Virus record (IMG/VR): IMGVR_UViG_3300044825_001160
Span: 1 to 52,845 of that record
Length of the DNA: 52,845 nucleotides
Source: a virus
Lineage: Duplodnaviria; Caudoviricetes
Direction: 5' to 3' (one strand)
Shown here one piece after another: positions 3,534-37,200 of this stretch. A program made the translations under genes and the position numbers. How positions within the stretch are numbered: the stretch's first letter is position 1; each line of letters starts with the position of its first letter. Below the pieces are notes generated by a model. That model made no database searches. It saw nothing but the letters and a program-made list of their open reading frames with translations, and was not told the DNA's origin.

Positions 3534-4129
3534 GGAGTGGTGGGAAGAAGCAGCTTGTTCGACTTAGCCAAGTTTTCTTCGCGGGTTATAATACGTAAGT
3601 TCCACGGAACGTGCAGACCGCAAACGATGTCAGACCGCAAAGGAACAATGTGATCTACTACGTATTGTTCTCCGGTTATCTTGGTCATTGTTATAGCGGT
3701 TTGATATATCTGGCGGATCTCTGTTTTTTGTCTGCGTGACAGCCACGGCGGTGCGGCTTCCCGATGCCTCCGACGACGAGCTTTCGTATCAGCCCGTATT
3801 TTGACTAAATTATTTTGTTTCCAGTTATTTCTGTACTCACGTAACTGGGCTGCAGGGCGTGTAGTAGCTCTCTGTATTACAGCACTACGATTAGCCGTGT
3901 ACCAAGCGTTTTTACGGTCTTTAACCGTTTCCATACGGTTGTAGGCAAAAAAATAATCACGACGTTTTTCATTATTACTTTGCCATTCGACCTTTAAGCA
4001 CTCAATACAAGCACCTTTCGTTTTTCTGGGGGCTATGTGGCCGTGTTTACATGGGGTTCCCGTGAAGTAATGAGCAGCGCCGATTGCCTTAGCTTCAGCA
4101 CGGGTTTTGGGAAGATCTGCGAAATCCAT
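3530..4129 (-). CDS. Free-standing HNH homing endonuclease
   Basis: C-terminal VDHIVPL...VCGLHVPWNLRIITREENLAKSN HNH motif; N-terminal YFTGTPCKHGH...CIEC Zn module; visibly lower GC than the capsid gene. Confidence 0.85.
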   Translation of the reverse strand: MDFADLPKTRAEAKAIGAAHYFTGTPCKHGHIAPRKTKGACIECLKVEWQSNNEKRRDYFFAYNRMETVKDRKNAWYTANRSAVIQRATTRPAAQLREYRNNWKQNNLVKIRADTKARRRRHREAAPPWLSRRQKTEIRQIYQTAITMTKITGEQYVVDHIVPLRSDIVCGLHVPWNLRIITREENLAKSNKLLLPTTP

Positions 4130-4158
4130 AAAACGCTCCTGTAGACTTAGTTACAGGT

Positions 4159-4187
4159 AACGTATCTGGGCGGAAGTAAGAAGTCAA
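4159..4187 (-). promoter_or_regulatory. Putative sigma70 promoter for the HNH gene
   Basis: TTGACT-N17-TACGTT directly after the capsid terminator; AGGAG RBS precedes the ATG. Confidence 0.5.
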
Positions 4188-4190
4188 GAC

Positions 4191-4219
4191 AAAAAGAAAG
4201 GGGCCCGAAGGCCCCTTTC
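4191..4219 (-). terminator. Intrinsic terminator after the major capsid gene
   Basis: GAAAGGGGCC-TTCG-GGCCCCTTTC-TTTTT; 10-bp stem, cUUCGg tetraloop, U-tract. Confidence 0.9.
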
Positions 4220-4227
4220 AAGTCGCG

Positions 4228-4240
4228 TAAGTGCTTGATT
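4228..4240 (-). promoter_or_regulatory. IHF-consensus site
   Basis: AATCAAGCACTTA matches WATCAA-N4-TTR. Confidence 0.45.
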
Positions 4241-4242
4241 TA

Positions 4243-5154
4243 TCAGGTGGAACCTGACGAACCAAAGACTCCAAGCGGGTCCGACCAGCCAAAGCTGTAA
4301 CGCTCGCGGCTCTTGTAACGGACATTTCCCGTGTCAAAATCACCATCCATTGAGTTTTGCAGCGGGGTACGGACGAAGTGCTTCAGGCCATTCGGTACAT
4401 CCGTCAGGAGGAACCAAGCATTGGTGTCCGTCAGGAAGTGGTTGACCTTGTAGCCTTCCGGGATCGAGCCCATGGCCTTGAGGGCGTTGATGTCGTTGTC
4501 GGTCGTCCCAACACGGAGTTCCGTATCGAGCAGACGCTTGGCAACGAACATCAGTGCCGGGGGCACGACGAGCTTGCGGGGCTTGGCGGCGATAAGCAGG
4601 TTACGCTCATCCGTCCAAGCTGCGATCTGAATGACTGCCGCCTCAAGGGAGGTTTCGTTCAGGTCAGCCTGCGTGGTGAACGTGTTGCTGTTGACGCCGC
4701 CGGAGACGATGGGGTGTGCGGTCGAGAACAGAGCGACACCGTCACCGCCGGGATTGGCGGCGCTGAAGCCGTTGTTCAGGATCGACGCCGCCTTCACCTG
4801 CTTGGTGTACGCCATTGCCCGGGCGAGAGCCTTGGTGTAGCGCTTGCTGAGAGAATCATAGAGGTTGTCCTCTACGGCCTCTTCAGTGATGCTGAAGCCA
4901 AGAGCAATCGTCTCGTGGTTGTAACGGGCGGTCCATGCTTCCTGCGCATTGTCATACGCAATTGCAGAACCTTCCGCCTTGACCGGAGCAGCCGAGAAAC
5001 CCGACAGCTTGGTCTCCTCTTCAAAGGAACGCTCGGAGGTTTCTACTTCGTAGATCTCCTTGTGCTCTTCTCCGTAGGTGTTGTACTCCATGCCGAACAG
5101 AGCGTTCAGGCCGGGGAGCAGTTCTTTCAGTAGTTGTGCGCGTGAAATAGCCAT
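4243..5154 (-). CDS. Major capsid protein (Mu gpT-like family)
   Basis: 303 aa, MAISRAQLLKELLPGLNALFG... to ...RERYSFGWSDPLG, recognised from related phages; strong codon bias; followed by a strong terminator. Confidence 0.9.
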   Translation of the reverse strand: MAISRAQLLKELLPGLNALFGMEYNTYGEEHKEIYEVETSERSFEEETKLSGFSAAPVKAEGSAIAYDNAQEAWTARYNHETIALGFSITEEAVEDNLYDSLSKRYTKALARAMAYTKQVKAASILNNGFSAANPGGDGVALFSTAHPIVSGGVNSNTFTTQADLNETSLEAAVIQIAAWTDERNLLIAAKPRKLVVPPALMFVAKRLLDTELRVGTTDNDINALKAMGSIPEGYKVNHFLTDTNAWFLLTDVPNGLKHFVRTPLQNSMDGDFDTGNVRYKSRERYSFGWSDPLGVFGSSGST

Positions 5155-5168
5155 GTGTCACTGCTCCT

Positions 5169-6020
5169 TTAAGCGGTGGCGCTGCTGTAGTAGCCATGGA
5201 TCAGCAGGTTCACCTTGACCAGAATCTCCGGGTAGACCGTGAAAATAATGGTCGAGGACGCAGGGATGTTAGTACCCGCACCTGCCAACGTGGGCTGAGC
5301 GTTGATCGTAATGGACGTAGCACCCGCCGAAGCAGCCGCAGTTACAAACGAGCCAGTATCAATTACCTGACCATTTGCAGCGAGGTAACCCACGCTCGTA
5401 CCAATCGGAATCGCCGCCGACAGACCCGAGCCCGTCAGAGTGATCGTCGTAGTGGCCGAAGAGCCCGTACCCGTAGCCGCGTATGCCGTATCCTCAACCA
5501 CGCCGACGCAACGAACCGGAAGGATCGTGCTAACCGGAGTAGCCGTGGGAGCCAGTACTGCGTTACGGGAGTTACCCGTCATAGTCTGACCAGCGAGGTC
5601 TACGTTGTTTACCATCGACAGGTTGGTGCCAACCAGTGCTTTCGCGCCGGAAGCAACGACCGTAGTTGCCGAGCAAACAACCGCTTTGAACACCGTATCA
5701 GGGTCATCGCAGACAACAGCCATTGCATCGCCAGCCAGCGTGCCCGAGGGCCAGTACTGCGAGAACTGCTTCTGCTTGGTGGTCGGGTTGGTGAACGAGC
5801 AGCCGAGGAATACCCCGGTTACTTGGTTTACGCCCGTGCCGGTGGATACTGCTGCACGAGTCGCAAAACCGCGAGCGAGTACCACAAAGTCGCCGTAATA
5901 AATGTTGGCGTTGTAGCCGTACTGGATGGGAATCATCCGAGTAGAGCCAGAGAACACCTGCCCGCCGATCAGGTTGATCGGCTTCAGGCCGTAAGGCCCG
6001 TCAAGCGCCGGATAAGCCAT
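5169..6020 (-). CDS. Putative head decoration / minor capsid protein
   Basis: 283 aa directly upstream of the capsid gene; PYGLKPINLIGG...GVFLGCSFTNP...DDPDTVF. Confidence 0.6.
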   Translation of the reverse strand: MAYPALDGPYGLKPINLIGGQVFSGSTRMIPIQYGYNANIYYGDFVVLARGFATRAAVSTGTGVNQVTGVFLGCSFTNPTTKQKQFSQYWPSGTLAGDAMAVVCDDPDTVFKAVVCSATTVVASGAKALVGTNLSMVNNVDLAGQTMTGNSRNAVLAPTATPVSTILPVRCVGVVEDTAYAATGTGSSATTTITLTGSGLSAAIPIGTSVGYLAANGQVIDTGSFVTAAASAGATSITINAQPTLAGAGTNIPASSTIIFTVYPEILVKVNLLIHGYYSSATA

Positions 6021-13194: not shown

Positions 13195-13198
13195 TAGC

Positions 13199-13219
13199 GT
13201 TCTGCCACCCTGTCAGAAT
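13199..13219. promoter_or_regulatory. Palindromic element copy 1 (degenerate)
   Basis: GTTCTGCCA-CCC-TGTCAGAAT preceded by TAGC. Confidence 0.7.
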
Positions 13220-13306
13220 GGTCTAGAGCTTGACTAAACGAACGACGGCGCTCAATCTGCACTTACCGGATGGCATGTCGCCGCCGGCAATAGTGGAGAT
13301 ACAGTC

Positions 13307-14020
13307 ATGACTAAGTCGAAAGTAGCAACGGCCATGGGCATCCGCACGATGCAGGACTGCGCCATCGCGGTAGATACCGCTGCCACGCTGGAAGGCAGCG
13401 CGATCGAGTACCTGAGGACCAAGGGTGTGCTCCCTCGCGGGAACGCGAAGGGTGAGACGGCAGAGGAATACACGTCCTACCTCACGGGCTTCGAGCCCGA
13501 CAAGGGGCTCGCGGACGAATTCCGTTCGCACCTCGGCGTGATCATGGCCACGCGCCGGGATCGCGAGCACGGGGAGCGCCGCTACGCTCGCACAAAGGAC
13601 GGAAAGGTCCGGCGTGCGACAGGCAAGGACAAGGACGAAGCCTGCTTTGTCTTGTCCGCTGTGGCCGCGTTCACGCGTGATCAAGAGACGATCACGGCGC
13701 TCCCCGGCTCGCGTGGTGACCTCACCACGGAGAAGGGTTTGTGGTGGGCCGAGCGTAAGACGGTGCAGGATGGCGTCGCACAGCGCTTCGGACGGCTGAA
13801 GAGTGCGGCGGGTGTCTTCATCGACGCCACGGGCAAGACAACGCGGGGCACTCGCGCATCGAACAAGAGCGTGGGTGAGATCCTCGCCGAGGCGCACGGT
13901 CGCGTAATCAAGCGCTGCCGCAGCGAAGGATGCGCACCATGGGAGGAGGTGCAGAAGGTACTCAAGGATGCCGAGCAGCGCATCGCAGCGCTGGTCGATG
14001 CACGCAAACTGGACGCGTGA
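13307..14020 (+). CDS. Hypothetical early protein
   Basis: 237 aa; GGAGA RBS; followed by a terminator. Confidence 0.75.
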   Translation: MTKSKVATAMGIRTMQDCAIAVDTAATLEGSAIEYLRTKGVLPRGNAKGETAEEYTSYLTGFEPDKGLADEFRSHLGVIMATRRDREHGERRYARTKDGKVRRATGKDKDEACFVLSAVAAFTRDQETITALPGSRGDLTTEKGLWWAERKTVQDGVAQRFGRLKSAAGVFIDATGKTTRGTRASNKSVGEILAEAHGRVIKRCRSEGCAPWEEVQKVLKDAEQRIAALVDARKLDA

Positions 14021-14025
14021 CTGAC

Positions 14026-14055
14026 GGGGCGGGCCGCGAGGCTCGCCCCTTTTTT
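14026..14055 (+). terminator. Intrinsic terminator
   Basis: GGGGCGGGCC-GCGA-GGCTCGCCCC-TTTTTT; GNRA loop. Confidence 0.85.
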
Positions 14056-14072
14056 AACCTAGGAGGACTGAT

Positions 14073-14282
14073 ATGGACGCAAGAACACAAGGGCAGCTAT
14101 ACGGGCTGCTCGTCTCATGGATCAACTACGGGGTAGACAACGGGGCGGACGAAGAGACTGCCGCCATTGCGTACAGGCTGGCAGTGGAACTCCTCCCGGA
14201 TAGGGAGGTGGCCGGACCAGAATTGACGGAAGATGAGCGCCGGTTTTTTGAGATCCTCGCCGAGGAAATGCGGCGCGACTGA
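14073..14282 (+). CDS. Hypothetical early protein (acidic)
   Basis: 69 aa; AGGAGG RBS. Confidence 0.7.
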   Translation: MDARTQGQLYGLLVSWINYGVDNGADEETAAIAYRLAVELLPDREVAGPELTEDERRFFEILAEEMRRD

Positions 14283-14289
14283 TCTCAAC

Positions 14290-14324
14290 GGGGTGGGGGC
14301 CACGCGGCTCCCGCCCCTTTTTTT
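14290..14324 (+). terminator. Intrinsic terminator
   Basis: GGGGTGGGGGCC-ACGC-GGCTCCCGCCCC-TTTTTTT. Confidence 0.85.
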
Positions 14325-14336
14325 GGCCCTTTGAAA

Positions 14337-14515
14337 CCAGTTCCCAGCGCGAGCGCGCTCGCCCGCCACCACGCAGCCCACCGCGTACGCCTTGTCTAGC
14401 CCAGCCCACTAAGTAGCATTCTGACAGCGTGTCAGAACGGTGCCCATGATGCCAGTTCCTAGCGCGAGCGCGCCCAGCGTGGCCGCTAAATAGTGTTCTG
14501 ACAGCGTGTCAGAAC
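14337..14515 (+). repeat. Two composite units: a 22-bp GC-rich repeat followed by palindrome copies 2 and 3
   Basis: CCAGTTCC(C/T)AGCGCGAGCGCGC at 14337-14358 and 14452-14473; (A/G)TTCTGACA-GCG-TGTCAGAAC at 14418-14438 and 14495-14515. Confidence 0.85.
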
Positions 14516-14702
14516 GAGATGGTTTAGAATATCGAGATTTTAGCTGGTCAGCTCATTTAGTACGGTTAATCGCGTAAGTTTAACCTGTTCCGGACGCATT
14601 ACCTGACAAACAGGTGCGAGAAGTCGGTATGACCGTACTAATTTAGATTTTGGTTAAAAAACGATCAATTTAGCAAAAACGTGGTACTTTTTGGCAAAAA
14701 TC

Positions 14703-15209
14703 CTGTTCCATTAGTAAAGCGCCGTTCCAGAAAATTAAGTGTACTTATGGAACAGGATTAAACTTAACTGTACTCTGCAAGTCGCTAAGTTATTGATTTT
14801 CACTTTGTTTCGGGGGTCAACTTTACTAATGAAAAGTGCCGCTTATACTATTTTCGAGTTTTGTTCCGTTGTTCCAGCGTTTTTAGAGGGGGGGAACCCC
14901 CGCGCATTTTCGCGAGGTCTTGGAACAAGACTGTACAAATGGCAGCAAGTGTGCAGGGGTCGTCCCCTCTCCAAAATCGCTGGAACAACGGAACAAAACA
15001 AAAAAATAAATATAACTTTATATCTTATATATATAGTTACATTTTTCTACTCTAACAAAATCAATCACTTACAAGCCCCCTCATTTTTTCATTAACCCAG
15101 TTAGAGACAAACCCTGTTCCATAAGTCCAACTATTTTTCTGGAACGGCCGGAACGGCTGGAACAGCCCTTTACTAATTACCCTTAGTTTTCAATAAAATC
15201 AAACACTTA
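14703..15209. other. Putative replication origin: nested inverted repeats, GTTCC/GGAAC motifs, IHF sites and an AT-rich tract
   Basis: Perfect 22-bp IR 14858-14879/14978-14999; 14-bp IRs 14743-14756/15113-15126 and 14721-14734/15135-15148; IHF consensus at 14786-14798(-), 15059-15071(+) and 15197-15209(+); AT tract 15000-15045. Confidence 0.55.
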
Positions 15210-15266
15210 CCTCTCCCCTGCCCAAATCCCTGCCCAAATCCCCCTAAATTCTCATTTTTTCGTTGT

Positions 15267-15381
15267 CTATCTTTCGTACCTAACCTCTTGCAATAAGTAC
15301 AGTATTGTGAGACAATACGAAACATGGGGAAGCACCTAGTTACCGCTTCTCCTAGATAGCGTTCTGACACGGTGTCAGAAC
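15267..15381 (+). promoter_or_regulatory. Early promoter with upstream box, leader hairpin and palindrome copy 4
   Basis: CTATCTTTCGTA (15267-15278), N9, TTGCAA-N17-GACAAT (15288-15316, with TG extension), hairpin 15326-15352, GTTCTGACAC-G-GTGTCAGAAC 15361-15381. Confidence 0.7.
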
Positions 15382-15410
15382 GGAGTAATCATTCAGTAGG
15401 AGATACAGTC

Positions 15411-16121
15411 ATGCGATACCTCGCAATCGGCAACAACGCCAAGACCGTGAAGTCAGACCAAGGCGGCGAGTACCTCACCGCGATCATGTACCTCGCCCCC
15501 GCCGACACGGTGCCGGGCATCAATCTCTGCCCGATGGCAGAACTTGCCCAGTGCAAGGCTCCCTGCCTGTTCTCCGCAGGACGCGGCGCGTTCGCATCCG
15601 TTCAGGATGCCCGGGTTGCCAAGACGATTGAATTCCGCGACGACCGCGAGGCGTTCATGCTTCAGCTTGTGGCAGACATCCGCACGGCACGGCGCAAGGC
15701 AAACAGGCTCGGGGTCAAGTTGGCCGTGCGCTTGAATGGCACGTCGGACATTGCATGGGAGAACGTGATGTTCTGGTACGGGGACCGCTACCTGAACCTG
15801 ATGGAGCTTTTCCCTGATGTGCAATTCTACGACTACACCAAGCTCCCGGGCAGGAAAGTCCCTGCCAACTACCATCTGACCGTGAGCTACTCGGGCGCGA
15901 ACGCAGCCTATGCGAAGAAGACAAGCAAGACCCCGCACAACATCGCTGTGGTCTTCTCGGGCGCGCTCCCTGCCACCTACCTTGGCAGGCCTGTGATCAA
16001 TGGGGACAAGGACGACTTGCGCTTCCTCGACCCGGCAGGCGTGGTCGTCGGCCTCACAGCCAAGGGCAAGGCAAAGAAGGACACCTCGGGCTTCGTCATT
16101 CGTCTGCAGGAGGTTGCGTGA
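15411..16121 (+). CDS. GP88-like protein with a three-Cys cluster
   Basis: Start 15411 after AGGAGA; NLCPMAELAQCKAPCL, VRLNGTSDI, QFYDYTK, GDKDDLRFLD. Confidence 0.6.
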   Translation: MRYLAIGNNAKTVKSDQGGEYLTAIMYLAPADTVPGINLCPMAELAQCKAPCLFSAGRGAFASVQDARVAKTIEFRDDREAFMLQLVADIRTARRKANRLGVKLAVRLNGTSDIAWENVMFWYGDRYLNLMELFPDVQFYDYTKLPGRKVPANYHLTVSYSGANAAYAKKTSKTPHNIAVVFSGALPATYLGRPVINGDKDDLRFLDPAGVVVGLTAKGKAKKDTSGFVIRLQEVA

Positions 16122-16300
16122 TGAGCATGTCAGAGATCATCCAGAGCTATTACAAGCGTGGTTTCCGCCTCATCCACGAGGCCGAGCATGCGTACGAGGA
16201 CGGGCATGGTGTGGAGGTAGTGCTCCAGCGTCTTGGCACGCTGGTGTGCATTCGCGAGCCCCTGCAGGGTTACATCATCGTCGAGGAGGACTACGCGTGA
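16118..16300 (+). CDS. Hypothetical protein
   Basis: 60 aa, overlaps the previous stop; GGAGG upstream. Confidence 0.55.
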   Translation: MMSMSEIIQSYYKRGFRLIHEAEHAYEDGHGVEVVLQRLGTLVCIREPLQGYIIVEEDYA

Positions 16301-16382
16301 GCAGGACATATCACAACCGGAAGGACAACAAAAAGCGGCGTGCGCTCACGCGCAAGCTGCGCAACCGCAAGGAGAAAGTGTA

Positions 16383-16556
16383 ATGGACGCTAAATCTGAT
16401 GGTTTGGTGTGGTTCGTCAAAGGCGCAGAGGAAGAGGGGTGCTTTACCACAAAAACAGGGGCAGAGGCTTTCGCCCGCATGATGTTTCAAGACGAAGACC
16501 CAAGCACTCGCTATGCCCGCATCTACTACCGCAATCTTTGGAAATTGGAAGCATGA
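16383..16556 (+). CDS. Hypothetical protein
   Basis: Start MDAKSDG after AGGAG. Confidence 0.55.
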   Translation: MDAKSDGLVWFVKGAEEEGCFTTKTGAEAFARMMFQDEDPSTRYARIYYRNLWKLEA

Positions 16557-16900
16557 GCAAGCACGGGGAACAGGACATGAGCTACAGAGACGTGAACTAC
16601 AACAAGATCGGCCTTGCACACAACCCGGAGCCGCCCGATCCCGGGCCGAGCGAGGAGGAGCGGATCGAGTACAAGTACAGCCAGATCCGGGACAGCGAGT
16701 GGCACATCGACCGGTGCTTTGAGGGTGATGAGAAGCTGGTAGCCCATCTTGCGCGCTTGCTCGCTCACTACCGTGAGCACCCGGGGGGAGACCTGCGCCC
16801 CATCGTGGACGCATTGAACGAGTGGCTGGACAGTGAACTGTGGGAGTACGCCAAGATCATCGTGTCTGAGCGTAACAAGCGTGGCGACTATGACTTCTAA
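16553..16900 (+). CDS. Hypothetical protein
   Basis: ATGA overlap start (MSKHGEQ); a downstream Met is an alternative start. Confidence 0.6.
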   Translation: MSKHGEQDMSYRDVNYNKIGLAHNPEPPDPGPSEEERIEYKYSQIRDSEWHIDRCFEGDEKLVAHLARLLAHYREHPGGDLRPIVDALNEWLDSELWEYAKIIVSERNKRGDYDF

Positions 16901-16910
16901 GGAGATTGAT

Positions 16911-17129
16911 ATGAGCGACTACAACACGACCAAGCACGCGAGCCGCTGCACCTACCTGCAGGACGGGGTCTACCCGCACTGCGACTGTGGCGTGCGTGAC
17001 CGGGGCATTGAGATGTTCGCCAAGGCGATGGGCGGGATCTCCATCGAGCAGGCAGAAGAGATGCTCTCGACCATCGACAGCGTGATGGGCAGGCTGTTCA
17101 CCGGCAGGGACAAAGAGGAGGAGGTGTGA
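16911..17129 (+). CDS. Hypothetical protein with Cys/His motif
   Basis: AAGGAG RBS; HASRC...HCDCG. Confidence 0.6.
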   Translation: MSDYNTTKHASRCTYLQDGVYPHCDCGVRDRGIEMFAKAMGGISIEQAEEMLSTIDSVMGRLFTGRDKEEEV

Positions 17130-17332
17130 TGGAGATGAACGCATTCGCTGTCATTTGTATCGCTGTGGGTGGGTTCTTCGTTATCGACGGGGCGCGGGCG
17201 CTACTACTGGCGAGGGGGAGGCGGCGCATCACCGACCTGTCCTTCCGTAGCCCCGACCCTGCCTGTATGCGCCTTGGCGAACGGATGGAGCGGCAGGCGG
17301 ACTACGTGCGCCGAGTCGAGCGGCAGGGGTGA
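17126..17332 (+). CDS. Small putative membrane protein
   Basis: 68 aa; N-terminal hydrophobic stretch; GGAGG RBS. Confidence 0.55.
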   Translation: MMEMNAFAVICIAVGGFFVIDGARALLLARGRRRITDLSFRSPDPACMRLGERMERQADYVRRVERQG

Positions 17333-17349
17333 GCGGGCTAGCTCGCTAG

Positions 17350-17462
17350 CTATCTTTCGTAAACAAATACTGGACATACGAGAGACGATGGCCTACAATG
17401 GGAACCATGGCAGTTCGGTCTGGACTGCCAGTTGAGATAGCGTTCTGACACCGTGTCAGAAC
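17350..17462 (+). promoter_or_regulatory. Early promoter with upstream box, leader hairpin and palindrome copy 5
   Basis: CTATCTTTCGTA (17350-17361), N9, TGGACA-N17-TACAAT (17371-17399), hairpin 17408-17430, GTTCTGACAC-C-GTGTCAGAAC 17442-17462. Confidence 0.75.
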
Positions 17463-17507
17463 GAGTGAGATCAAGTAACCAAGTTACACCACAAGTTGGA
17501 GATGATC

Positions 17508-18440
17508 ATGGACACAGCAATGACGTTGACTGCACCGGAACACATCACCTCGCTTCGCAGCGCGGCCATACTGGTGTGCGCCAAGGTGACCTCGACCACG
17601 GGGTCCAAGACTGACCGGGGCGAGGGGCTCGACCTCGCTGCCCGCCGGGGCGCGGAGAGCAACACCGTGGACGTGGTGAAGAAGCTTTTCGCCCGCTGCA
17701 CTGAGCACCGTGAGTTGCAGAACGTGCGCCAGACCGTGAACAACGGCATGAAGCGGTTCACGTTCGACTGGGCCGGGGACTGGCGCATGCTGCCCATGTC
17801 CCGCTATGCGGAGTTCATGGAGTGGTGGACTGAGGTGGTCAACCTGCACACGCTGCGCAAGCAGGCGTTCATCGAGGCGTACCCCTCCATCCGGGCAGAC
17901 GCAGCGTTCAGCTTGGGCGATCTGTTTGAGGAGGCGGACTTCCCCCCGGTGGAGCATGTGGCTGCCAAGTTCACGATCAACCTGTACAAGCAGGACGTGC
18001 CGACCGGGGACTTCCGCAATCAGATCGCTGAGGACTTGGCAGATGATCTGCACAAGCACTACGTGATCCAGACCCGGGAGTTGGTGCAGTCCATCGTGGA
18101 CGAGCAGATGGCGCAGTTCGTCTCGGTCATGCAGTCCATCGTGCACTGCTGCGGGTACGACACCAAGGAGAACAAGCAGGGCGAGACAGTCATCGTGCGC
18201 CGTCGCCTGCACGAGGGGACACTGCAGCGTGCGTTGGAGATGTGCGAGACCTTCCGGCGGTTCAACCCGGCAGGGTCCAGCGAGTTGGAGGCTGTGCGCG
18301 GTGAGTTGGAGCAGGTGCTGCGCTCGGTGGACAACATCGACACGCTGCGTGAGTCGGAGACCTTGCGCGCTCGGGTGAGCGGCGAGGTGGGTAGCATCCT
18401 CAGCAAGTTCAAGCTCGGTGGCTTGGGGGAGGGGGAGTAA
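17508..18440 (+). CDS. Helical protein of the AAA/vWA module (DUF3150-like)
   Basis: Start after TTGGAG; FIEAYP...LGDLFEEADFPPVEHVAAKF; adjacent to the AAA ATPase. Confidence 0.55.
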   Translation: MDTAMTLTAPEHITSLRSAAILVCAKVTSTTGSKTDRGEGLDLAARRGAESNTVDVVKKLFARCTEHRELQNVRQTVNNGMKRFTFDWAGDWRMLPMSRYAEFMEWWTEVVNLHTLRKQAFIEAYPSIRADAAFSLGDLFEEADFPPVEHVAAKFTINLYKQDVPTGDFRNQIAEDLADDLHKHYVIQTRELVQSIVDEQMAQFVSVMQSIVHCCGYDTKENKQGETVIVRRRLHEGTLQRALEMCETFRRFNPAGSSELEAVRGELEQVLRSVDNIDTLRESETLRARVSGEVGSILSKFKLGGLGEGE

Positions 18441-18518
18441 CAGAAGGGGGTAACAGGGAATCAAACAGCAATTCATATTTCAGTTATCACAGTTACATCA
18501 CAGTAGAGGACTACACAC

Positions 18519-19613
18519 ATGACGACCAACAACTTCGCGACCAACATTGCCCCGCTCACCATCAGCGAGTGTGCGCGGCTGATCCGTACCGTGGGCGAGC
18601 ATGTCACGGTGTACATCGAGAGCGAGCCGGGCTGCGGCAAGTCCAGCATCCTCAAGGTCTTGGCCGAGCAGATGGGTGACGCCTACGAGTACGTCTACCT
18701 CGACTGCCCGACGCTGGGCGATGGCGACCTCGGGATGAACATCCCCAACCGGGAGACGGGGCAGTTGGAGTTCTTCGTCTCCAGCCTGCTGAAGCTCGAC
18801 GCGGGCAAGCCCGTGGTCATCATGGCGGACGAGGTGGCCAAGATGAGCAACCTGCTCAAGGTCATCATCACGCGTCTGTTCCTTGAGCGTGCCATCGGTG
18901 ATCGCGTCCTGCCTGCCGGGAGCATTGTCTTCGCTACGTCCAACCACGGGTCGGACGGCGTGGGCGATACGCTGCAGGCGCACATCGGCAACCGCATCAT
19001 GCGTGTTGAGATGGCCAAGCCAGATCACAAGTCATGGTGTGCATGGGCCGGTGAGCATGGCGTGAGCGCGCTCACCCGTGCGTGGGTGACGATGAAGCCC
19101 AAGGCACTGCACAGCTACCGCCACATCACGGCGGAGGAGTTGCGCGACAACGAGTTCATCTTCAACCCCAGCCGCCCGGTGACTACGTTCGTCTCGCCGC
19201 GCTCGCTGGAGAAGGCGGACGTGGTGGTGCGCAACCGTGACATCCTCGGTGACACGGTGACCAAGACGGCGCTCGCGGGTGTCGTCGGTGCTGCAGCAGC
19301 CGAGAGCATGGCGATGTTCTTCAAGCTGGAGAAGGACCTGCTCCCCATCTCGGCGATCCTGCGTGACCCGGAGGGCATTACGCTTCCCACGCAGGTGGGT
19401 GCGTTGCTCATGACGCTGTTCAACGCAGTCGACGAGTTGGAGACGCAGGACCAACTGGTCAAGTTCATGCGCTTCACGGCGCGGCTCGACAGTGAGGAGT
19501 TCCGGGCGGTGTTCTTCACCATGCTCTGCGAGTCCAAGCGTACGGCGCGCATGGCCATGCAGAACGCTGAGGTGAAGGCGTGGTACTTGGCCAACCACAA
19601 GCTGGTCTCGTGA
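18519..19613 (+). CDS. MoxR-like AAA+ ATPase
   Basis: Walker A EPGCGKSS, Walker B VIMADE, sensor FATSN, Arg finger NR, SPRS. Confidence 0.85.
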   Translation: MTTNNFATNIAPLTISECARLIRTVGEHVTVYIESEPGCGKSSILKVLAEQMGDAYEYVYLDCPTLGDGDLGMNIPNRETGQLEFFVSSLLKLDAGKPVVIMADEVAKMSNLLKVIITRLFLERAIGDRVLPAGSIVFATSNHGSDGVGDTLQAHIGNRIMRVEMAKPDHKSWCAWAGEHGVSALTRAWVTMKPKALHSYRHITAEELRDNEFIFNPSRPVTTFVSPRSLEKADVVVRNRDILGDTVTKTALAGVVGAAAAESMAMFFKLEKDLLPISAILRDPEGITLPTQVGALLMTLFNAVDELETQDQLVKFMRFTARLDSEEFRAVFFTMLCESKRTARMAMQNAEVKAWYLANHKLVS

Positions 19614-19623
19614 GGAGTCAGCC

Positions 19624-19863
19624 ATGGACAAGACCAAGACAGTACTTGTGGAGCGGTTTCCGAGGTGGCCAAAAAGCACGAGGAGGATAGTACTTGTAGA
19701 GATCAAGCAGACGTACGGGGTAGAGCGCATCTACCCCCGCAATGCGACGGCGGAACATTTCACAAGTTTAACTGGACAGAAAACGCTGAGCCGGGATACG
19801 CTCCGGATCGTGCGTGAGTTGGGCTTTGAAGTGCAGTTAGTTAAACAAGTCATGGAGTTTTGA
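19624..19863 (+). CDS. Hypothetical protein
   Basis: 79 aa; GAGGAG RBS. Confidence 0.65.
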   Translation: MDKTKTVLVERFPRWPKSTRRIVLVEIKQTYGVERIYPRNATAEHFTSLTGQKTLSRDTLRIVRELGFEVQLVKQVMEF

Positions 19864-19865
19864 TC

Positions 19866-21098
19866 ATGAGCGCAGCCATCGACATCAAGGCGCAAGCCGA
19901 GCTTCGCATCAAGCGGGCACACATCCGCCTGATGCGTCATGAACTGACCTACTACTACAGCGGTGTCATGCTGCTGGGTAACACGGTTGTGGACATGACC
20001 ACGCCCACGGCATGCACTGACGGGCTCAACGTGTGGTTCGGTGCAGACTTCATCATGTCACTGTCTGAGGCAGAGGTGGCCGGTGTTGTGCTGCACGAGC
20101 ACCTCCACAAGTTCCTGAAGCACCTGCCCCGCCACCGTGACCTGATGAAGGAGAACGGACGGCTGGCCAATGCAGCCATGGACTACGTGGACAACAGCAT
20201 CATCAAGGGGATCGAGCGTGCGACCAACGGCACACTGCTGGCGCTCCCTGCGTGCGGGCTGTATGACGAGACGTTCGACAACTGGTCGGTGCGTGAGATC
20301 TACAACTTCTTGAACAAGTGTGAGCAGCAGCCCCAAACGGGTGATGACGACAACAGCAGCGACAGCGTCAAGGACGGCAACGGCAAGTCATACCGTGTCT
20401 CCACGCAGGACGAGCATGACGTGGACGCAGTCGATGGGATGGACGCTGACCAGATCGAGGAGTTGGGTCAGCAGATCGACGACGCCATCCAGCAGTCAGC
20501 CCTGCTCGCCGGGTTGACGGGTGCCAAGCTGCCGCGTGCGATCACTGAGCTTCTGCAGCCAGAGGTTGACTGGGTTGCTGAGTTGCGTGAGTTCATGCAG
20601 TCCCATATCAAGGGCAGCAGCGAGCACACATGGCGCAAGTTCAACCGCCGCCGCATCGTGGACGATCTGTATCGCCCGGGTACATACACCGAGCGGATGG
20701 GCCGTGTGCTTGTCGCCATCGACACGTCGGGCTCGATCAGCAACCAGCAGTTGGCGCGGTTCGGCGGGGAACTGGCATCAATCTGCGAGCAGTGCCGCCC
20801 GGACGAGATGCAGGTGTTGTGGTGGGATACGCAGGTGCATGGTATGCAGCAGTTCGATGAGTCGAGCTACGCCAACATCCGCACCATGCTGAAGCCCATG
20901 GGGTTCGGTGGTACTCGGGTCGGTTGTGTCAGTGACTACATCAAGTCCAACAACATCGACGCCGACTGCCTTGTGGTGTTCACAGATGGCTATGTCGAGT
21001 CACCGGTCGCGTGGGACATCACGCTGCCGACATTGTGGGTTGTGGTGGGCAACGAGTCATTCGTTCCGCCGCGTGGCGTCAAAGTGAAGTTCAAGTAA
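19866..21098 (+). CDS. Metallopeptidase-vWA protein (DUF2201-like)
   Basis: TACTDG, HEHLH (HExxH), acidic linker, MIDAS DTSGS, GGT, VFTDG. Confidence 0.85.
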   Translation: MSAAIDIKAQAELRIKRAHIRLMRHELTYYYSGVMLLGNTVVDMTTPTACTDGLNVWFGADFIMSLSEAEVAGVVLHEHLHKFLKHLPRHRDLMKENGRLANAAMDYVDNSIIKGIERATNGTLLALPACGLYDETFDNWSVREIYNFLNKCEQQPQTGDDDNSSDSVKDGNGKSYRVSTQDEHDVDAVDGMDADQIEELGQQIDDAIQQSALLAGLTGAKLPRAITELLQPEVDWVAELREFMQSHIKGSSEHTWRKFNRRRIVDDLYRPGTYTERMGRVLVAIDTSGSISNQQLARFGGELASICEQCRPDEMQVLWWDTQVHGMQQFDESSYANIRTMLKPMGFGGTRVGCVSDYIKSNNIDADCLVVFTDGYVESPVAWDITLPTLWVVVGNESFVPPRGVKVKFK

Positions 21099-22168: not shown

Positions 22169-22461
22169 CTGCGGAAGCAAAGGTTAAGAAGCGGGTGAAG
22201 GAAGTTCTCAACGCACTCGGAGCGTACTACGCCATGCCTGCCACGGGTGGGTATGGTTCCTCCGGAGTGCCGGACTTCCTTGTCTGCTACAAAGGAAGAT
22301 TCATCGGAATCGAATGCAAGGCGGGTAAGGGTAAGACCACCGCCTTGCAGGAGAAGAACCTGCGCCTGATACAGGAGGCAGGAGGCGAAGCGTTCGTAGT
22401 GAACGAAGACAATGTAACCACACTGAAGTCCATCATGGAGAGTTTGTATGAGCAAGAGTAA
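22165..22461 (+). CDS. VRR-NUC domain nuclease (putative Holliday junction resolvase)
   Basis: MTAEAKVK...GVPDFLVCYKGRFIGIECKAGKG...ALQ. Confidence 0.85.
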   Translation: MTAEAKVKKRVKEVLNALGAYYAMPATGGYGSSGVPDFLVCYKGRFIGIECKAGKGKTTALQEKNLRLIQEAGGEAFVVNEDNVTTLKSIMESLYEQE

Positions 22462-22843
22462 AACGACAAAGACCAGCAAGATCCAGTCGATGCTGAGTCG
22501 CGGGATGAAGCCCCGGGCGATTGCCGAGAAGCTGGGTATCCCAGTATCCAGCGTGTATCAAGTGAGCTACCGCATGAAGAACGGCACGCCGAAGCCCAAG
22601 GCCAAGCCGAAGGCCAAGCCTGAGCCGGTTGTAGTTGAGGTAGAGAAAGTACAAGAGGTAGACATGGTCAACCATCCCCCGCATTACACGGTCGGCGGAA
22701 TTGAGACCATCGACTTCATCGAGGCGAAGGGTCTTGGGTATCTGCTTGGCAACGTGGTCAAGTACGTGTCTCGCGCAGCCCACAAGGGTGGCGTCGAGGA
22801 TCTCAAGAAGGCCAAGTGGTATCTGGAGCGGGCAATCGGATGA
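22448..22843 (+). CDS. DUF3310 (T7 gp1.7-like) protein with N-terminal HTH-like segment
   Basis: DMVNHPPHYT..GIETID...GNVVKYVSRA..K...EDLKKAKWYL; N-terminal RAIAEKLGIPVSSVY. Confidence 0.8.
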   Translation: MSKSKTTKTSKIQSMLSRGMKPRAIAEKLGIPVSSVYQVSYRMKNGTPKPKAKPKAKPEPVVVEVEKVQEVDMVNHPPHYTVGGIETIDFIEAKGLGYLLGNVVKYVSRAAHKGGVEDLKKAKWYLERAIG

Positions 22844-24235: not shown

Positions 24236-24464
24236 ACGAAGAGTTTGACAAGTGGTGGGACAGTCCAGAAATCAGACACTCAACAAACCCATACAAAGCT
24301 GATACGGCGGTGTATTGGTCATACGAAGCGTGGATGTGGAGCGCAAAAGCCGAGCGCGAGGCGTGTGCGCGAATCGCCGAACTGGTAGCGCGGGAGATTG
24401 ACGACACCAACGGCACTGCAACTTACATTGCCGCCGCCATCCGCGCACGAGGTGACGCATGAAC
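24121..24464 (+). repeat. 117-bp imperfect direct repeat
   Basis: 24121-24237 vs 24348-24464; about 15 mismatches by manual count. Confidence 0.9.
24232..24462 (+). CDS. Small phage protein (AEREACA type), copy B
   Basis: 76 aa; C-terminal half nearly the same as copy A. Confidence 0.65.
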   Translation: MNEEFDKWWDSPEIRHSTNPYKADTAVYWSYEAWMWSAKAEREACARIAELVAREIDDTNGTATYIAAAIRARGDA

Positions 24465-24632
24465 ATTCCTCGCGACGAATACGAGATGGAACAAGAAGAG
24501 ATAGCGAAGGTGTTAGGCGTCCATCGCACACGAGTACAACATCTAGAGAAGAACGCACTAAGAAAGCTACGCAAGCTTTTTGAGGAGCGCGGTATTAAAT
24601 GGAACGACCTGACAACGGAAACACCGCCATGA
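24459..24632 (+). CDS. Stand-alone sigma70 region-4-like HTH protein (57 aa, absent from ORF track)
   Basis: MNIPRDEYEMEQEEIAKVLGVHRTRVQHLEKNALRKLRKLF... matches the region 4.2 pattern; GAGGT RBS; ATGA overlaps at both ends. Confidence 0.75.
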   Translation: MNIPRDEYEMEQEEIAKVLGVHRTRVQHLEKNALRKLRKLFEERGIKWNDLTTETPP

Positions 24633-30849: not shown

Positions 30850-31161
30850 ATGCCACGTCCGTATGGGGACAAACTACTGCGTAGCCTCCAGACAGCCGAG
30901 GAAGAAACCCTTGGTATCGAACTTGGTCGGGTGTGCGTGGCGGCGAATATACCTGCTGCCTACGTAGCGATTGCGCTGGAAGCCTCGCGAATGACGGTCT
31001 ACTCTTGGTTCCGTGGACAAGACATCCGCCGGAATCGACGCAAGATCGTCAGGACTCTTGTGGAACTCATGAAGCAAGACTTGGAGACCGGCATACTGCC
31101 CGCCAAGGATTACAACGCGGCGCGGCAATATATCGAGAGCCTAGCGGGAGTCAAAATCTAG
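30850..31161 (+). CDS. Putative HTH DNA-binding protein
   Basis: AYVAIALEASRMTVYSWFRG resembles a Cro/XRE-type HTH. Confidence 0.6.
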   Translation: MPRPYGDKLLRSLQTAEEETLGIELGRVCVAANIPAAYVAIALEASRMTVYSWFRGQDIRRNRRKIVRTLVELMKQDLETGILPAKDYNAARQYIESLAGVKI

Positions 31162-34053: not shown

Positions 34054-34252
34054 AGTCGTTGATAACGAGCCCGTATGGGGATTCCCGTTTGAGTGGATGA
34101 GCATAGGGGACAGCTTCTTCATCCCGACGCTGAAGCCGGAAGAGATGCTCTATGTCATAGATACCCGGGCCAAAGACGCCAAGGTCAAGATCAAGGCATT
34201 CATCACCCACAATGATGGGTGCCTTGGCGTCCGGGCATGGCGCGTGGCTTAG
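34043..34252 (+). CDS. Small conserved protein (possibly DNA-binding)
   Basis: FPFEWMSIGDSFFIP...GVRAWRV; last gene of the plus-strand block. Confidence 0.6.
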   Translation: MEVEVVDNEPVWGFPFEWMSIGDSFFIPTLKPEEMLYVIDTRAKDAKVKIKAFITHNDGCLGVRAWRVA

Positions 34253-37200
34253 GGCTCGATACCCAACTCTTTCATGCTATCAACGGATGTCTTCATGATG
34301 GCATTGCGCTCTTGCCTGAGATAGCGCATGTCAGGCGCTTTCTCTTTGGGTGACAGACTCTTGTCTGCCTGAAGCGCACGCATCTCAGCCTGTATGTCTC
34401 GCAGATCACTGCCCGCAATCTGATCGAATATTTCTACGGCAAGTTCTGCATCCGGATTGCGCCGGGTGTACAGGTCATAAGCATCGAAGTTGTTTTGATT
34501 CTTAAAGGCATTCAAGATCGCACGGTGCTTGTCGATTTTCTTTTTGACATCGTAGTACTCACGCGGATCAACTTCGATCCGCTTGCCAATGAACATGTCC
34601 AGAGCAATCAGATCTTTCTTCGCATCGAAGTCTTTGCGTCCGGTCATGGTCAGGCCGAGCCCGTGGAGTTCATGCGCCATCTTGCCAATAGCATCGCCGT
34701 AGCTACTAACAAAGAAGTTTATGTTCTCAGGGCTCATTTTGTTGGGATCAACGGGCACGCCGATTTCGTTCCCAAACTCCACTACCGCCTGCGCTATCTC
34801 ATGGTAAAGCTCAGGCGTGAAGTCGCCGCCGGTATACGCCGCGCCGTACTTGTTCTCTTTGCTGATGTTGATCTCTCTGCCAAGCGCGTCCAGTCCCATC
34901 ATGAATTCCAGAACCGGGCGACCGACAGAAGGCATGGCAGTGGATAGGACAAATTCTCCGGGGTGTTCCAACGGGGAATAGCGCGGAACGGGAAGAGGCA
35001 GGAACGAATCAAGCCCGATAGGTATCGCGTTCTTTATCACATCAAGCAAAGAGTTTTGCCCTGTCAGAAGCGCCCCAAGTTGCGCACCGAGCGCGCCGAA
35101 AGCACCGATACCGAATCCCCACGGGATCTGAAGGAAGTCGTTCCGCTCCCCTGCAAACTTGACCGGCAGACGAAGGTTACGCACCCACATCGCCATGTCA
35201 TCGTTCTTGACTATATTGCGTCCTTCTTCGTCCTGCCCTGCCATCGACAGAGCTATTAAATACGACGCCACACCCACGCCGGTCAGAAAACCCATCATGA
35301 TCTTGGCGTTCTTCGCACGCCGTGCATGGTCAGCGAGGAAGGCTTGGCGTCCAGCTTCAGCTTGAGGGCTATCACCCTGCAGGGAAGGAGGCAGGAGTGG
35401 CAACAGATTCTCTGGCCGTTGGAATGCCGGAAGCAGTGCGTCAACTGCGCGAACGGCAGATGTCACTGAAGGACGCAGGAAGATGAAGACTGAGCCAAGC
35501 TGCCGACCGAACCGCCCCACCTGCTCGTAGTTGAATAGGTTCTTGGTGTAGGCCACCGCTTCTTGCTTGAGCGCGCTGCGTACTGCGGGGTCATTCAGGT
35601 TCTGCCCGTCATCCCGCGCTCGCGCCATCAGTTCATCGCGCACAACAGCGTACGCTGCAGCACGGCTGGTGAACTCAAACATGTCAGCCCATGTGCTGAA
35701 GACCTCATCTATCTTCATCTTTGCGCGGCCCAGTTTGCCCGCGCCAATCTGCTCCATCTGCGTCTCGATCTGCCCAGCAATGCTCAAGCTGTTGCTATAG
35801 GCACTGCGTCCACCCATCGAGATAAATTCGTAGATATCATTAACAAACGGGTTCTTAGCCGCCATGCTTTTGATCTTGGCGGTGTCTCCCTTGTGATAGT
35901 AATAAGCTACCTTGCCAGCACGAGCGAGACCCAGCGTGGCGACCTTGGCACTGATATTGGCGATAAACCTTGCAGCGGTCTTGGGGCCTAGCTCTGCCCC
36001 CATGTTCCATGCGTTCGTCAGGAAGTCTCGGACGAAGTTACCCGGGTGGAATCCAAGGTTATAGAACGTATGCTGCCGCCCGATGAATTGGGTAATGCTG
36101 TTCATCGCACGGAATCCCCAGTGCAAATCACTGGACAGACCGCGAATGGACTCCACGATACCGGGGTTCTTGATCTCCAGTATTTGCACGCTGCCGTCTG
36201 GCAGGTATGTAACGAGCTTGTTCCGCTTATCAAGAAGCTCTTTCTCGATCTTCTCGCGATCCGCAAACGGAATCGGCTTGTGTGGTTTGCCTGTGAGGTG
36301 CCCTTGTTTTATCTGGTTCTTAATTGCGTCAGTGATACCAACACGCGATGCGCGCCCCGCTGCCAGATGGGCATCGAGCATCAACTGATAGATCGGGTTT
36401 TCCGTCGAGGTTCTGCGACCAAGCGCCTTCATAGGCAACTGGGTAAAGGCTGATCCGAGCGGCTCTACGTTGGACAACTCGTACTTGAGATCCTGCGAAC
36501 CAACTTTGGTGCCGGATTTGATCATGCCTTTGTACGGTACATAGTTCTTGTACCCGTAGAACCACCGAACGCCATCGACCGCAGGGTTCCAGTAGTTCGC
36601 TTTGCGGTCCAGTTCAATAACAACTTCGTTTAGTTCTTCAATAGCTTTGAAGTATGCGTTGAGTTCTGCTTGATGCGGACTGTTCTTGATCGAATCCAAA
36701 ACGGTAGCAACTTCTCCCGCCTTAAACCCGCCCACCACGTCATAGGCCGGATGGTTCTGATCCAGATACTCAGGTCCGGACTTGGCTTTAACAGTAGGGC
36801 TGTCGCCACCTTCTTTGGCGTAGCGGGAGACAAGCGTCCGTAGCTGTTTCTGAAGACTCTCTGCCGTCGCTTTGTCTGGGCTGGAGTTCTTTGCCTGCAT
36901 GATTGCTTCACGGTAGGTAGCAGGGGTCATCGTCTGCGTGCCTACACGGAGCTTGGTCTGATTATCCAGCGGGACATTCTCAAGGAACTTCTGATAGCGC
37001 CGCTCCTGTTCATGGCGCGCTACGCTCATCGTGCCAAGGAGATCAGTCGCTTCATCGACAGAAAGGTTGTCTGCTTTGGAGAAAGCGGCGACAGCATTAC
37101 TGAGTTTGCGAACAGCCGGCTCGACTAGTTCTTTTACAAACTCATCTGCTTTGGTTGACGAGGTCGTCAACAAGTCATAGATGGCATTCGCATCAGGCCC

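Follow-up and report, generated by a model that had tools for sequence, protein, structure and literature searches.

A palindrome repeated in the early region of an uncultivated phage and its relatives, uniform within each genome and divergent between lineages

We analysed a 52,845-bp stretch of DNA (hereafter the window), which represents in full the IMG/VR record IMGVR_UViG_3300044825_001160 from an uncultivated virus of the class Caudoviricetes (CheckV completeness 83%), and we identified a 21-bp palindrome, GTTCTGACA-N3-TGTCAGAAC, that is repeated five times in its early gene region. Palindromes of other sequence occupy equivalent positions in its relatives. The element is uniform per genome, divergent between close relatives and bound to the early region; it varies in concert from lineage to lineage, keeps a preferred distance from putative early promoters and lacks the signature of a conserved RNA structure, and no annotated function accounts for it. 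The reading that we favour, with a probability of roughly 0.45, is that these palindromes are double-stranded DNA recognition sites for a dimeric phage-encoded factor whose specificity has been diversified by lineage. Protein binding, the dimeric state and phage origin of the factor, and repression as its effect are all proposals of this reading.

A pattern scan with up to three mismatches allowed returned exactly five matches in 52.8 kb, all within 4.3 kb. These are the five copies that an earlier note, made from the sequence alone, had listed, and the scan added no others:

13199–13219: palindrome copy 1, two mismatches (GTTCTGcCA-CCC-TGTCAGAAt); a TTGACT hexamer follows after 11 nucleotides (nt) and the first early gene after 88 nt
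14418–14438: palindrome copy 2, one mismatch; forms a tandem pair with copy 3, 77 bp further on, and lies beyond two intrinsic terminators
14495–14515: palindrome copy 3, perfect; completes the tandem pair, on the left edge of an AT-rich iteron region
15361–15381: palindrome copy 4, perfect, with 10-bp arms at 15360–15382; in the leader of the GP88 operon, 30 nt before the ATG at 15412
17442–17462: palindrome copy 5, perfect; in the leader of the DUF3150-AAA-DUF2201 operon, 46 nt before the ATG at 17509

The chance expectation for the palindrome was 0.01, none of 100 shuffles gave five copies, and a control pattern read backwards had no match in the window. The 9-nt half-site occurs seven times where 0.34 occurrences were expected; as every one of these falls inside a palindrome, there are no isolated half-sites. 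The arms are conserved and the centre is variable, the central triplets being CCC, GCG, GCG, CGG and CCG (four different ones among five copies), just as the earlier note had read them. The dyad reaches 10-bp arms (C...G) in copies 3–5, and copies 4 and 5 agree in 28 of 29 positions (AGATAGCGTTCTGACAC[G/C]GTGTCAGAACG). TAG(C/T) lies immediately to the left of all five copies, within a fuller flank (CTA..)TAGY, and a CCAGTTCC repeat precedes both copy 2 and copy 3. The left arm of copy 1 is interrupted by a C at 13205, a position at which all covering contigs from four of four other metagenome runs have the consensus A. The runs were compared as DNA contigs; contig breaks at palindromes are a usual assembly effect at repeats and were not used. 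The description of all copies as intergenic holds if GP88 starts at the ATG at 15412, which has an AGGAG 9 nt upstream, and fails if it starts at the GTG at 15372.

The early and replication genes form a plus-strand block at 13.3–34 kb, which encodes a GP88-family protein, a DUF3150-like protein, an AAA ATPase and a DUF2201 metallopeptidase/VWA protein, and further a family A DNA polymerase, a PD-(D/E)XK exonuclease, a helicase and a DUF927 primase-helicase. On either side of this block, the minus strand encodes packaging and virion proteins (terminase, portal, head and ejection proteins, and a 2139-aa LPD38 protein). Megablast of the window against named phages gave no match. By large terminase, the nearest named relatives (47–53% identity) are Phage DSL-LC04, phage 023Pt_psg01 and Pelagibacter phages HTVC027P/023P; the DSL-LC04 terminase is 53% identical, and the gene layout adjoining it differs from that of the window. 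Metagenome runs containing DNA of the window are for the most part from freshwater. A tyrosine integrase (PF00589) was found neither in the window nor in four relatives, two of them 92–95% complete, in a search confined to this family.

For comparison we took the 80 best terminase matches (80–87% amino acid identity), of which 24 cover at least 3.5 kb of the early side; individual loci, genomes and metagenome runs are given below by our L, G and X handles. Seventeen of these 24 relatives carry at least three perfect copies of a palindrome of their own, and one more qualifies when mismatches are allowed, which makes 18 of 24, with 3–15 copies each. The relatives have at least 12 palindrome types (GTTCTGACA-N3, TTTCTGAC-YTAG, TCCTGACA-N, TCTGACA-N, CGTATTA-NN, CGTATCA-NN, CGTTAGG-N3, TCCTATCG.., TTCCGGAAT-N, CCTTACA-N3, CATAACAA-N and TTTCATC-N4). 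The arms measure 7–11 bp, are near-invariant inside one genome and differ between genomes; the centre is 0–4 nt long across types and variable in sequence. Orthologous sites, such as the one before the DUF3150 gene, carry the type that is resident in each genome. Two of the types, CGTATTA..TAATACG and CGTATCA..TGATACG, differ by one mirrored base pair, and do so in all copies.

The exact motif of the window was identified in one other IMG/VR contig (L005/G001), with three exact copies and one degenerate copy, and this was the only additional phage in the viral, genome and metagenome collections searched. Its dyad extends to ATGTTCTGACA-N3-TGTCAGAACAT, and its layout is that of the window: the first early gene and its terminator are followed by the tandem pair, then by the AT-rich region, and then by a copy 21 nt before a GP88-like gene. 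The loci L006 and L007, with GP88 proteins 80% and 76% identical and a terminase 85% identical to those of the window, again show this layout; their palindrome is TTTCTGAC-(C/T)TAG-GTCAGAAA, present in 7–8 copies, one ahead of each early gene. More distant GP88-bearing phages carry TTATAAC-N3-GTTATAA (10 copies) or (T/A)TTAACCAAGTTGGTTAAA (six copies), each confined to 3.4–4.2 kb of a 22-kb contig, with the exception of a one-mismatch TTATAAC-N3-GTTATAA copy located about 4.9 kb past its cluster. In G006, which is 95% complete, all eight copies of its own palindrome lie in 9.1 kb of 60 kb and the control pattern had no match; confinement to the early region was likewise found in G002, G003 and G004. 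The scan of the genome and its relatives suggested in the earlier note has thus been borne out at both levels, with five copies in the window and palindromes at equivalent positions in its relatives.

In the window, copies 4 and 5 lie within predicted leaders, and the tandem pair lies behind two terminators:

17371–17399, plus strand: sigma70-like promoter TGGACA-17-TACAAT (10/12, consensus match only), 42 nt upstream of copy 5
15288–15316, plus strand: weaker sigma70-like promoter TTGCAA-17-(TGa)GACAAT (8/12 plus a TGn extension seen by eye, below the scan threshold), 44 nt upstream of copy 4
14026–14049, plus strand: intrinsic terminator after the first early gene, -22.7 kcal/mol
14290–14317, plus strand: intrinsic terminator after the second early gene, an open reading frame (ORF) of 69 codons, -26.6 kcal/mol

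The -10 boxes that had been reported 42–44 nt before copies 4 and 5 are GACAAT, ending at 15316 (44 nt), and TACAAT, ending at 17399 (42 nt). The GP88 operon is followed by a weak terminator, the second promoter, copy 5 and the DUF3150 gene, in that order. Promoters are not enriched overall in the window scan (four found against 2.4 expected), and of the two leaders only that of copy 5 has a promoter that passes it. In 15 representative early regions, a palindrome begins 24–78 nt past the -10 box at 13 of 15 strong sigma70-like promoters; random placement gave a mean of 1.08 and a maximum of seven in 2000 trials. A Shine-Dalgarno (SD) sequence directly adjoins many of the palindrome copies.

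A second setting shared between palindrome types is a region that is likely a replication origin:

14332–15170: AT-rich non-coding region, candidate replication origin, with about 15 GGAAC(A)/GTTCC iterons and nested inverted repeats (45-nt and 39-nt arms)

This region comprises about 0.8 kb without credible ORFs. On its left side the iterons are interleaved with copies 2 and 3, and copy 4 lies beyond it on the right. The origin-like arrangement with palindromes is repeated in L005 and L006, and the iteron TGGAAC is kept across palindrome types (L006, L156, L186 and L202), with TAGAACA in L005. A perfect DnaA box is present in the origin-like region of L005 and of L006, and not in that of the window, where DnaA boxes are not enriched and none falls inside the AT-rich region. 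The alpha protein of phage P4 binds similar TGTTCACC iterons, and the candidate origin at 14332–15170 perhaps serves the 944-aa DUF927 primase-helicase.

What is conserved in these elements is the dyad and not a stable hairpin. Of 137 copies, from 17 loci, 90 form perfect dyads. The 137 copies contain 61 non-Watson-Crick positions, of which 14 are G·U as read on the sense strand, another 14 are A·C and the remaining 33 are of other kinds; with G·U no more frequent than A·C, changes that preserve pairing are not favoured. No G·T position occurs in the consensus arms of any type. The loops vary while the stem sequence stays conserved; known hairpin binders, such as N on boxB, require the reverse, a conserved loop. 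Spacer-less types have self-complementary centres (CTAG in five of seven L006 copies, AATT in four of seven L151 copies), which are predicted by two-fold symmetry of DNA and not by a loop. The window copies fold as hairpins of 9–10 bp at -8 to -13 kcal/mol, and across types the median energy of RNA folding lies between -2.6 and -13.2 kcal/mol, compared with -22.7 and -26.6 kcal/mol for the terminators of the window. Searches against Rfam at gathering thresholds gave no match in the window, L156, L181 or L006, and a tRNA search of five sources gave none. The comparison of arm covariation with sequence conservation, which had been put forward as a check on structure against protein site, accordingly returned strict arms, a free centre and no G·U signal, and favours a sequence-type site.

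Read as double-stranded DNA sites, the palindromes mark the immediate-early genome, at about +35 to +55 past early host-type promoters, between early cistrons and among the iterons of the putative origin. The factor, once made or delivered with the DNA, would occupy these sites, with a negative action in cis being the most likely outcome: occupied sites would block or insulate transcription of the early units, as a roadblock or as an operator, and their occupancy may be coupled to origin firing. As the sites centre near +45 and are found also between cistrons and in the origin region, a roadblock or insulator fits and a classical promoter-occluding operator does not.

Several observations weigh against this reading. 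A site centred at about +45 is unusual for a repressor, so that roadblock action would be needed, and the binding protein that the reading requires was not found among the candidate proteins compared with palindrome type. Six of the 24 close relatives are without such a repeat. Related types keep a CTGACA half-site while the spacing shifts from 1 to 3–4 bp, which is awkward for a rigid dimer. The left flanks are oriented (TAGY in five of five window copies, as the earlier note had stated, and a left AG in type CGTATTA), and the element is therefore not fully symmetric. The spacings of neighbouring palindromes show no helical phasing, for which reason we make no claim of DNA looping, and the promoters throughout are consensus matches only. 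The copies lie in transcribed leaders beside SD sequences, and in one distant phage, L009, GAG loops double as the SD sequence when an ATG is 1–3 nt off; these leader positions and loops make a role at the RNA level possible.

On balance we rank the double-stranded DNA reading above an RNA element acting in cis, which we consider unlikely even though it survives better than any other rival. The palindrome would in that case be a leader or intercistronic hairpin serving in processing, in 5' or 3' stabilisation, as a translational operator, or in nut-like loading by a lineage-specific RNA-binding protein or endoribonuclease. Besides the transcribed positions, which include the 13 of 15 early promoters with a palindrome at 24–78 nt and the many copies adjoining SD sequences, it can draw on the 9–10-bp hairpins of the window. 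Folded as RNA, the leaders of copies 4 and 5 each form a 5' hairpin of their own and then the palindrome hairpin, and in the copy-4 leader this 10-bp hairpin is nested within an anti-SD/SD pairing. Also consistent with an RNA element are the SD-like GAG loops of L009, two copies in L078 at +1 of sigma54 promoters, the palindromes of L156 and L181 that stand between non-coding units of 150–250 nt, as processing signals would, and the oriented flanks of some types. These points are set against loops that differ from copy to copy within a genome, on perfect stems whose sequence is conserved, and a regular RNA stem is rarely read by its sequence. Nor is stability conserved (-2.6 to -13 kcal/mol), some centres have 0–2 nt, G·U is no commoner than A·C (14 each) and missing from the consensus arms, and Rfam has no match. 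For a considerable part of the copies a role in an mRNA leader makes no sense; copies 2 and 3 come after two strong terminators and stand among the origin iterons. In a crude ORF-based classification of 159 copies from relatives, whose bins are unreliable, 67 have no ORF start within 120 nt and 14 lie inside long ORFs. The antitermination hairpin proposed earlier is possible in view of the copies in leaders, but the loops lack conservation, many copies are found between cistrons or in the origin region, and the fold of some types is weak. A lambdoid nut site has a conserved boxB loop recognised by N, with boxA nearby; in the palindromes the loops differ among copies and Rfam has no match, and the left flank CTArrTAGY is loosely boxA-like by eye.

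Returning to a DNA-binding factor, the comparative evidence favours the earlier idea of an operator for a dimeric phage regulator and speaks against both proteins that had been named for the task, since neither the product of 13307–14020 nor that of 30850–31161 follows the palindrome type. The genes that bear on this question are as follows:

13307–14020, plus strand: first early gene, 237 aa, member of a hypervariable family
17508–21098, plus strand: genes for the DUF3150-like protein (310 aa), the AAA ATPase (364 aa) and the DUF2201 metallopeptidase/VWA protein (412 aa)

The window and G001 share their palindrome, and their first early proteins show no similarity; L166 and L151 share palindromes and flanks that are about 100% identical, with an ORF just 50% identical. 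Members of this family, found at the homologous position in L124–L203, are linked by weak similarities only (24–38%), and the gene looks more like an arms-race, perhaps anti-defence, gene. In the helix-turn-helix (HTH) protein P0002 (30850–31161), the recognition helix is nearly unchanged between phages with unrelated palindromes. A protein with HTH_23 and DUF3310 domains (22448–22843) has a helix nearer to that of G002, which carries a different palindrome, than to that of G001, which carries the same one. The 57-aa stand-alone Sigma70_r4 HTH protein (24459–24632; Pfam 1.5e-8) is missing from all eight relatives searched (G001–G005 by sequence, G006–G008 by Pfam family), among them two palindrome-bearing relatives that are 92–95% complete. 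GP88 is 50–80% identical across unrelated palindromes and the G001 version has no match in the window, and a 68-aa CxxC family is distributed without relation to palindrome type. No small protein family was common to all palindrome types. PDB sequence searches with GP88 and the 310-aa, 237-aa and 2139-aa proteins gave no matches.

The DUF3150/AAA/DUF2201 module, the only correlate of the palindromes among the proteins compared, was present in all 12 palindrome-bearing loci that have at least 5 kb of early side and reach the usual position of the module, and absent from all four palindrome-less loci; in two more palindrome-bearing loci (L172 and L186) it was not seen, and their coverage may end before it. 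We treat this correlation as a lead and not as a result, because the four palindrome-less loci may be one clade. Identities of the window to G001 in the DUF3150, ATPase and DUF2201 proteins are 35, 53 and 49%, and to G002 they are 29, 31 and 36%, and in this three-way comparison the similarity of the module goes with palindrome type. The AlphaFold model of the DUF3150-like protein (pLDDT 76, pTM 0.45) matched no PDB fold at E <= 0.001, a sequence atlas points to DUF3150 alone, and a literature search on DUF3150 returned nothing relevant.

A more specific proposal, which we regard as doubtful, is that in these apparently virulent freshwater phages palindrome and factor co-evolve as a fast-diversifying private address code, by which each lineage controls only its own immediate-early cassettes and origin. 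Such a code would serve as a self/non-self system in co-infection, comparable to heteroimmunity or to T7 RNA polymerase-promoter specificity, but with dyads downstream of host-type promoters, and its factor may belong to, or work with, the DUF3150/AAA ATPase/DUF2201 module.

The palindromes also coincide with places of gene exchange. Between L166 and L151, identity drops from about 100% to about 50% exactly from the ATG to the stop of the palindrome-bracketed first early gene. In three of the four runs compared (X5, X7 and X13), contigs diverge from the window in the GP88 ORF and all rejoin at its stop at 16121, those of X7 and X13 departing immediately after the GP88 ATG (15414); another gene thus replaces GP88 in co-occurring variants across 15414–16121. 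L006 has two extra genes, each with a palindrome of its own, and the window is a mosaic, nearer to G001 in the DUF3150, ATPase and DUF2201 genes and nearer to G002 in terminase, GP88 and DNA polymerase. Since the sites and their adjacent leaders are the sole conserved sequence between exchangeable early genes, they form the borders at which cassettes are swapped. It could be argued that no dedicated binder exists and that the palindromes are cassette borders of the promoter(early) stem-loop (PeSL) kind, homogenised by recombination or gene conversion, with modular early-gene exchange as the main consequence. The exact exchanges between conserved intergenic elements, the additional genes of L006, the mosaic window and the PeSL precedent, as far as the consulted parts of the sources describe it (PMC2839356, PMC4122927), are all in line with that view, which we nevertheless hold to be improbable. 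Recombination alone leaves the dyad symmetry unexplained, as it does the presence of different yet internally uniform palindromes at orthologous sites and a mirrored one-bp change in every copy. The breakpoints moreover fall at ORF ends, outside the palindromes, and a role in exchange is compatible with DNA recognition sites as a by-product.

Very improbable is an N4-type promoter, in which extruded DNA hairpins would be used by a virion-delivered phage RNA polymerase, as the earlier note had suggested by analogy. N4 hairpin promoters have stems of 5–7 bp and loops of 3 nt, and the bases of both are conserved. The palindrome resembles them in its 3-nt loop and short stem (9–10 bp in the window, with centres of 0–4 nt in other types), the copies lie from a few to 46 nt before gene starts, and a 2139-aa protein is encoded among the structural genes. 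The loop bases of the window copies vary, however, extrusion would be impossible for weak or spacer-less types, and the copies are preceded by sigma70-like promoters. No PHROG, PDB sequence or RNA polymerase Pfam match was found for the 2139-aa protein, whose only Pfam domain is LPD38, and it shows HExxH but by eye no DxDGD-type motif. No T7-type RNA polymerase (PF00940) was detected in the window or in two relatives that are 92–95% complete, which is a weak negative, as the search had no positive control.

Least probable of all is a host transcription-factor site or captured host repeat: although distant GP88-bearing phages do have host-type early signals (sigma54 in L078; NtrC-like GCACC-N5-GGTGC in L026 and L032), the exact motif gave just scattered single-copy matches in genomes (31, in scattered taxa, from the genomes of 185,579 species) and in a metagenome collection (20, with no contig carrying more than one copy), and at least 12 unrelated palindromes occur in relatives that have 80–87% terminase identity and presumably similar hosts.

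The element belongs to none of stoperators, PeSLs, N4 promoters and Cluster O repeats. In form the Cluster O repeat of mycobacteriophages is nearest to it, in proposed action the stoperators, in evolutionary behaviour the stoperators and T7-group promoters, and in shuffling role the PeSLs. A general-term search found no published description of the repeat in these phages, and one in other wording is possible. The temperate Streptomyces phage phiC31 has conserved inverted repeats (CIRs), multiple dyads of about 17 bp in its early region that are operators for the c repressor; the likeness lies in multi-copy early-region dyads, and the difference in the temperate lifestyle and known binder of phiC31. 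T7-group promoters and the lambdoid boxB-N pairs are multi-copy, uniform per phage, different between relatives, and co-evolve with one phage protein. T7-type promoters are unlike the palindromes in being asymmetric and in needing a phage RNA polymerase, of which none was detected here.

The systems below are compared on the consulted parts of the cited sources. Cluster O mycobacteriophages carry a 17-bp dyad, 5'-TGTTCGGNNNCCGAACA (TGTTCGG-N3-CCGAACA), in 34 or more copies (PMC4351075). It shares with the palindromes the invariant inverted arms (7 bp there), the variable 3-bp centre and the many copies between ORFs or near gene starts, and the part of the report consulted assigns it no function and names no binder, as is the case here; this is a likeness of form and not homology (PMC4351075). 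Theirs is genome-wide in siphoviruses of Mycobacterium, with one sequence in all five genomes (PMC4351075), whereas here 3–15 copies keep to the early region, the phages are podovirus-like and from freshwater, and close relatives have different sequences. Cluster A stoperators (L5 gp71 type) are likewise many short sites, mostly away from promoters and between genes, whose consensus differs by sublineage and there co-evolves with the binder (PMC6550527, PMC9283540), and the elongation block proposed for them is the action that we infer here (PMC6550527). They differ in being 13-bp asymmetric sites for a monomeric immunity repressor, in 20–30 genome-wide copies oriented with transcription, in temperate phages (PMC6550527, PMC9283540). 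Of these L5-type features the palindromes show the lineage-varying consensus, and not the asymmetric site or the genome-wide spread, and neither a PF00589 integrase nor an immunity repressor was found.

The PeSLs of T4-type phages resemble the palindromes in flanking small variable early genes and in their modular shuffling, and differ in being a GC-rich GGGG..CCCC terminator ahead of a promoter (PMC2839356, PMC4122927); here the dyad follows the promoter at 24–78 nt, is not GC-rich, has no T-run, is often too weak to terminate, and is lineage-specific. Similarly, the start-associated sequences (SAS) and extended SAS (ESAS) of Cluster K are repeats tied to the translation starts of a subset of genes, with imperfect inverted repeats added in ESAS and no function assigned in the consulted part of the report (PMC3203893). 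SAS are 13 bp long, asymmetric and inclusive of the SD sequence, and ESAS have arms of 17 bp with spacers of 4–13 bp (PMC3203893), whereas here the dyad alone is conserved and occurs away from genes too.

For most uncultivated environmental phages regulation is not known, and a single motif has here opened a family-wide pattern, in which close relatives mark their immediate-early genes with different palindromes, set at a fixed distance behind host-type promoters and also around the origin. Should there be a cognate factor, these phages would naturally hold at least a dozen mutually orthogonal site/factor pairs, which, if true, would help in understanding how virulent phages time and insulate their early expression and escape cross-talk during co-infection, and would supply synthetic biology with parts. 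The sites moreover point to the places of exchange of early anti-host genes between phages, and the palindromes provide a simple signature of the early region and candidate origin in metagenomic phage contigs.

Several further observations concern the same phages. The 2139-aa protein (34249–40668, minus strand), encoded among the structural genes, has an HExxH motif, an LPD38 domain and 33% identity to its G002 counterpart, is otherwise without annotation, and is probably an injected polyvalent protein. Between early genes of the window, a 28-codon Arg/Lys-rich ORF (16297–16383), whose GTG overlaps the preceding stop, recalls arginine-rich RNA-binding peptides; just one more small basic ORF was seen in related contigs (G003).

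In the AT-rich GP88-bearing phage L078 (IMGVR_UViG_3300029319_000576), positions 3542–5150 of the early region contain five consensus sigma54 promoters (TGGCAYG-N4-TTGCW) on the sense strand, two of which put the palindrome of this phage at about +1. A sigma54-driven phage early region is unusual, and the early region of the window has no sigma54 promoter. Upstream of the GP88 gene in L026 (5359–5568) and L032 (2843–3074), and also in L025 and L029, we identified clusters of five to six copies of GCACCA-N3-TGGTGC, 32–63 bp apart. This motif equals the NtrC-type consensus, GCACC-N5-GGTGC, and through these clusters the phage may have an enhancer that makes use of a nitrogen regulator of the host.

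L140, a relative without a palindrome, has about 13 tandem copies of the 9-bp unit GCGGGTCAG at 5586–5700 of its reverse complement. On the reverse complements of L156 (8360–8950) and L181 (10560–11480), three to four GC-rich non-coding units of 150–250 nt are arranged in tandem, with short motifs in common and a palindrome between each, downstream of an early promoter; they match neither tRNA nor Rfam models and may be small RNAs of the phage.

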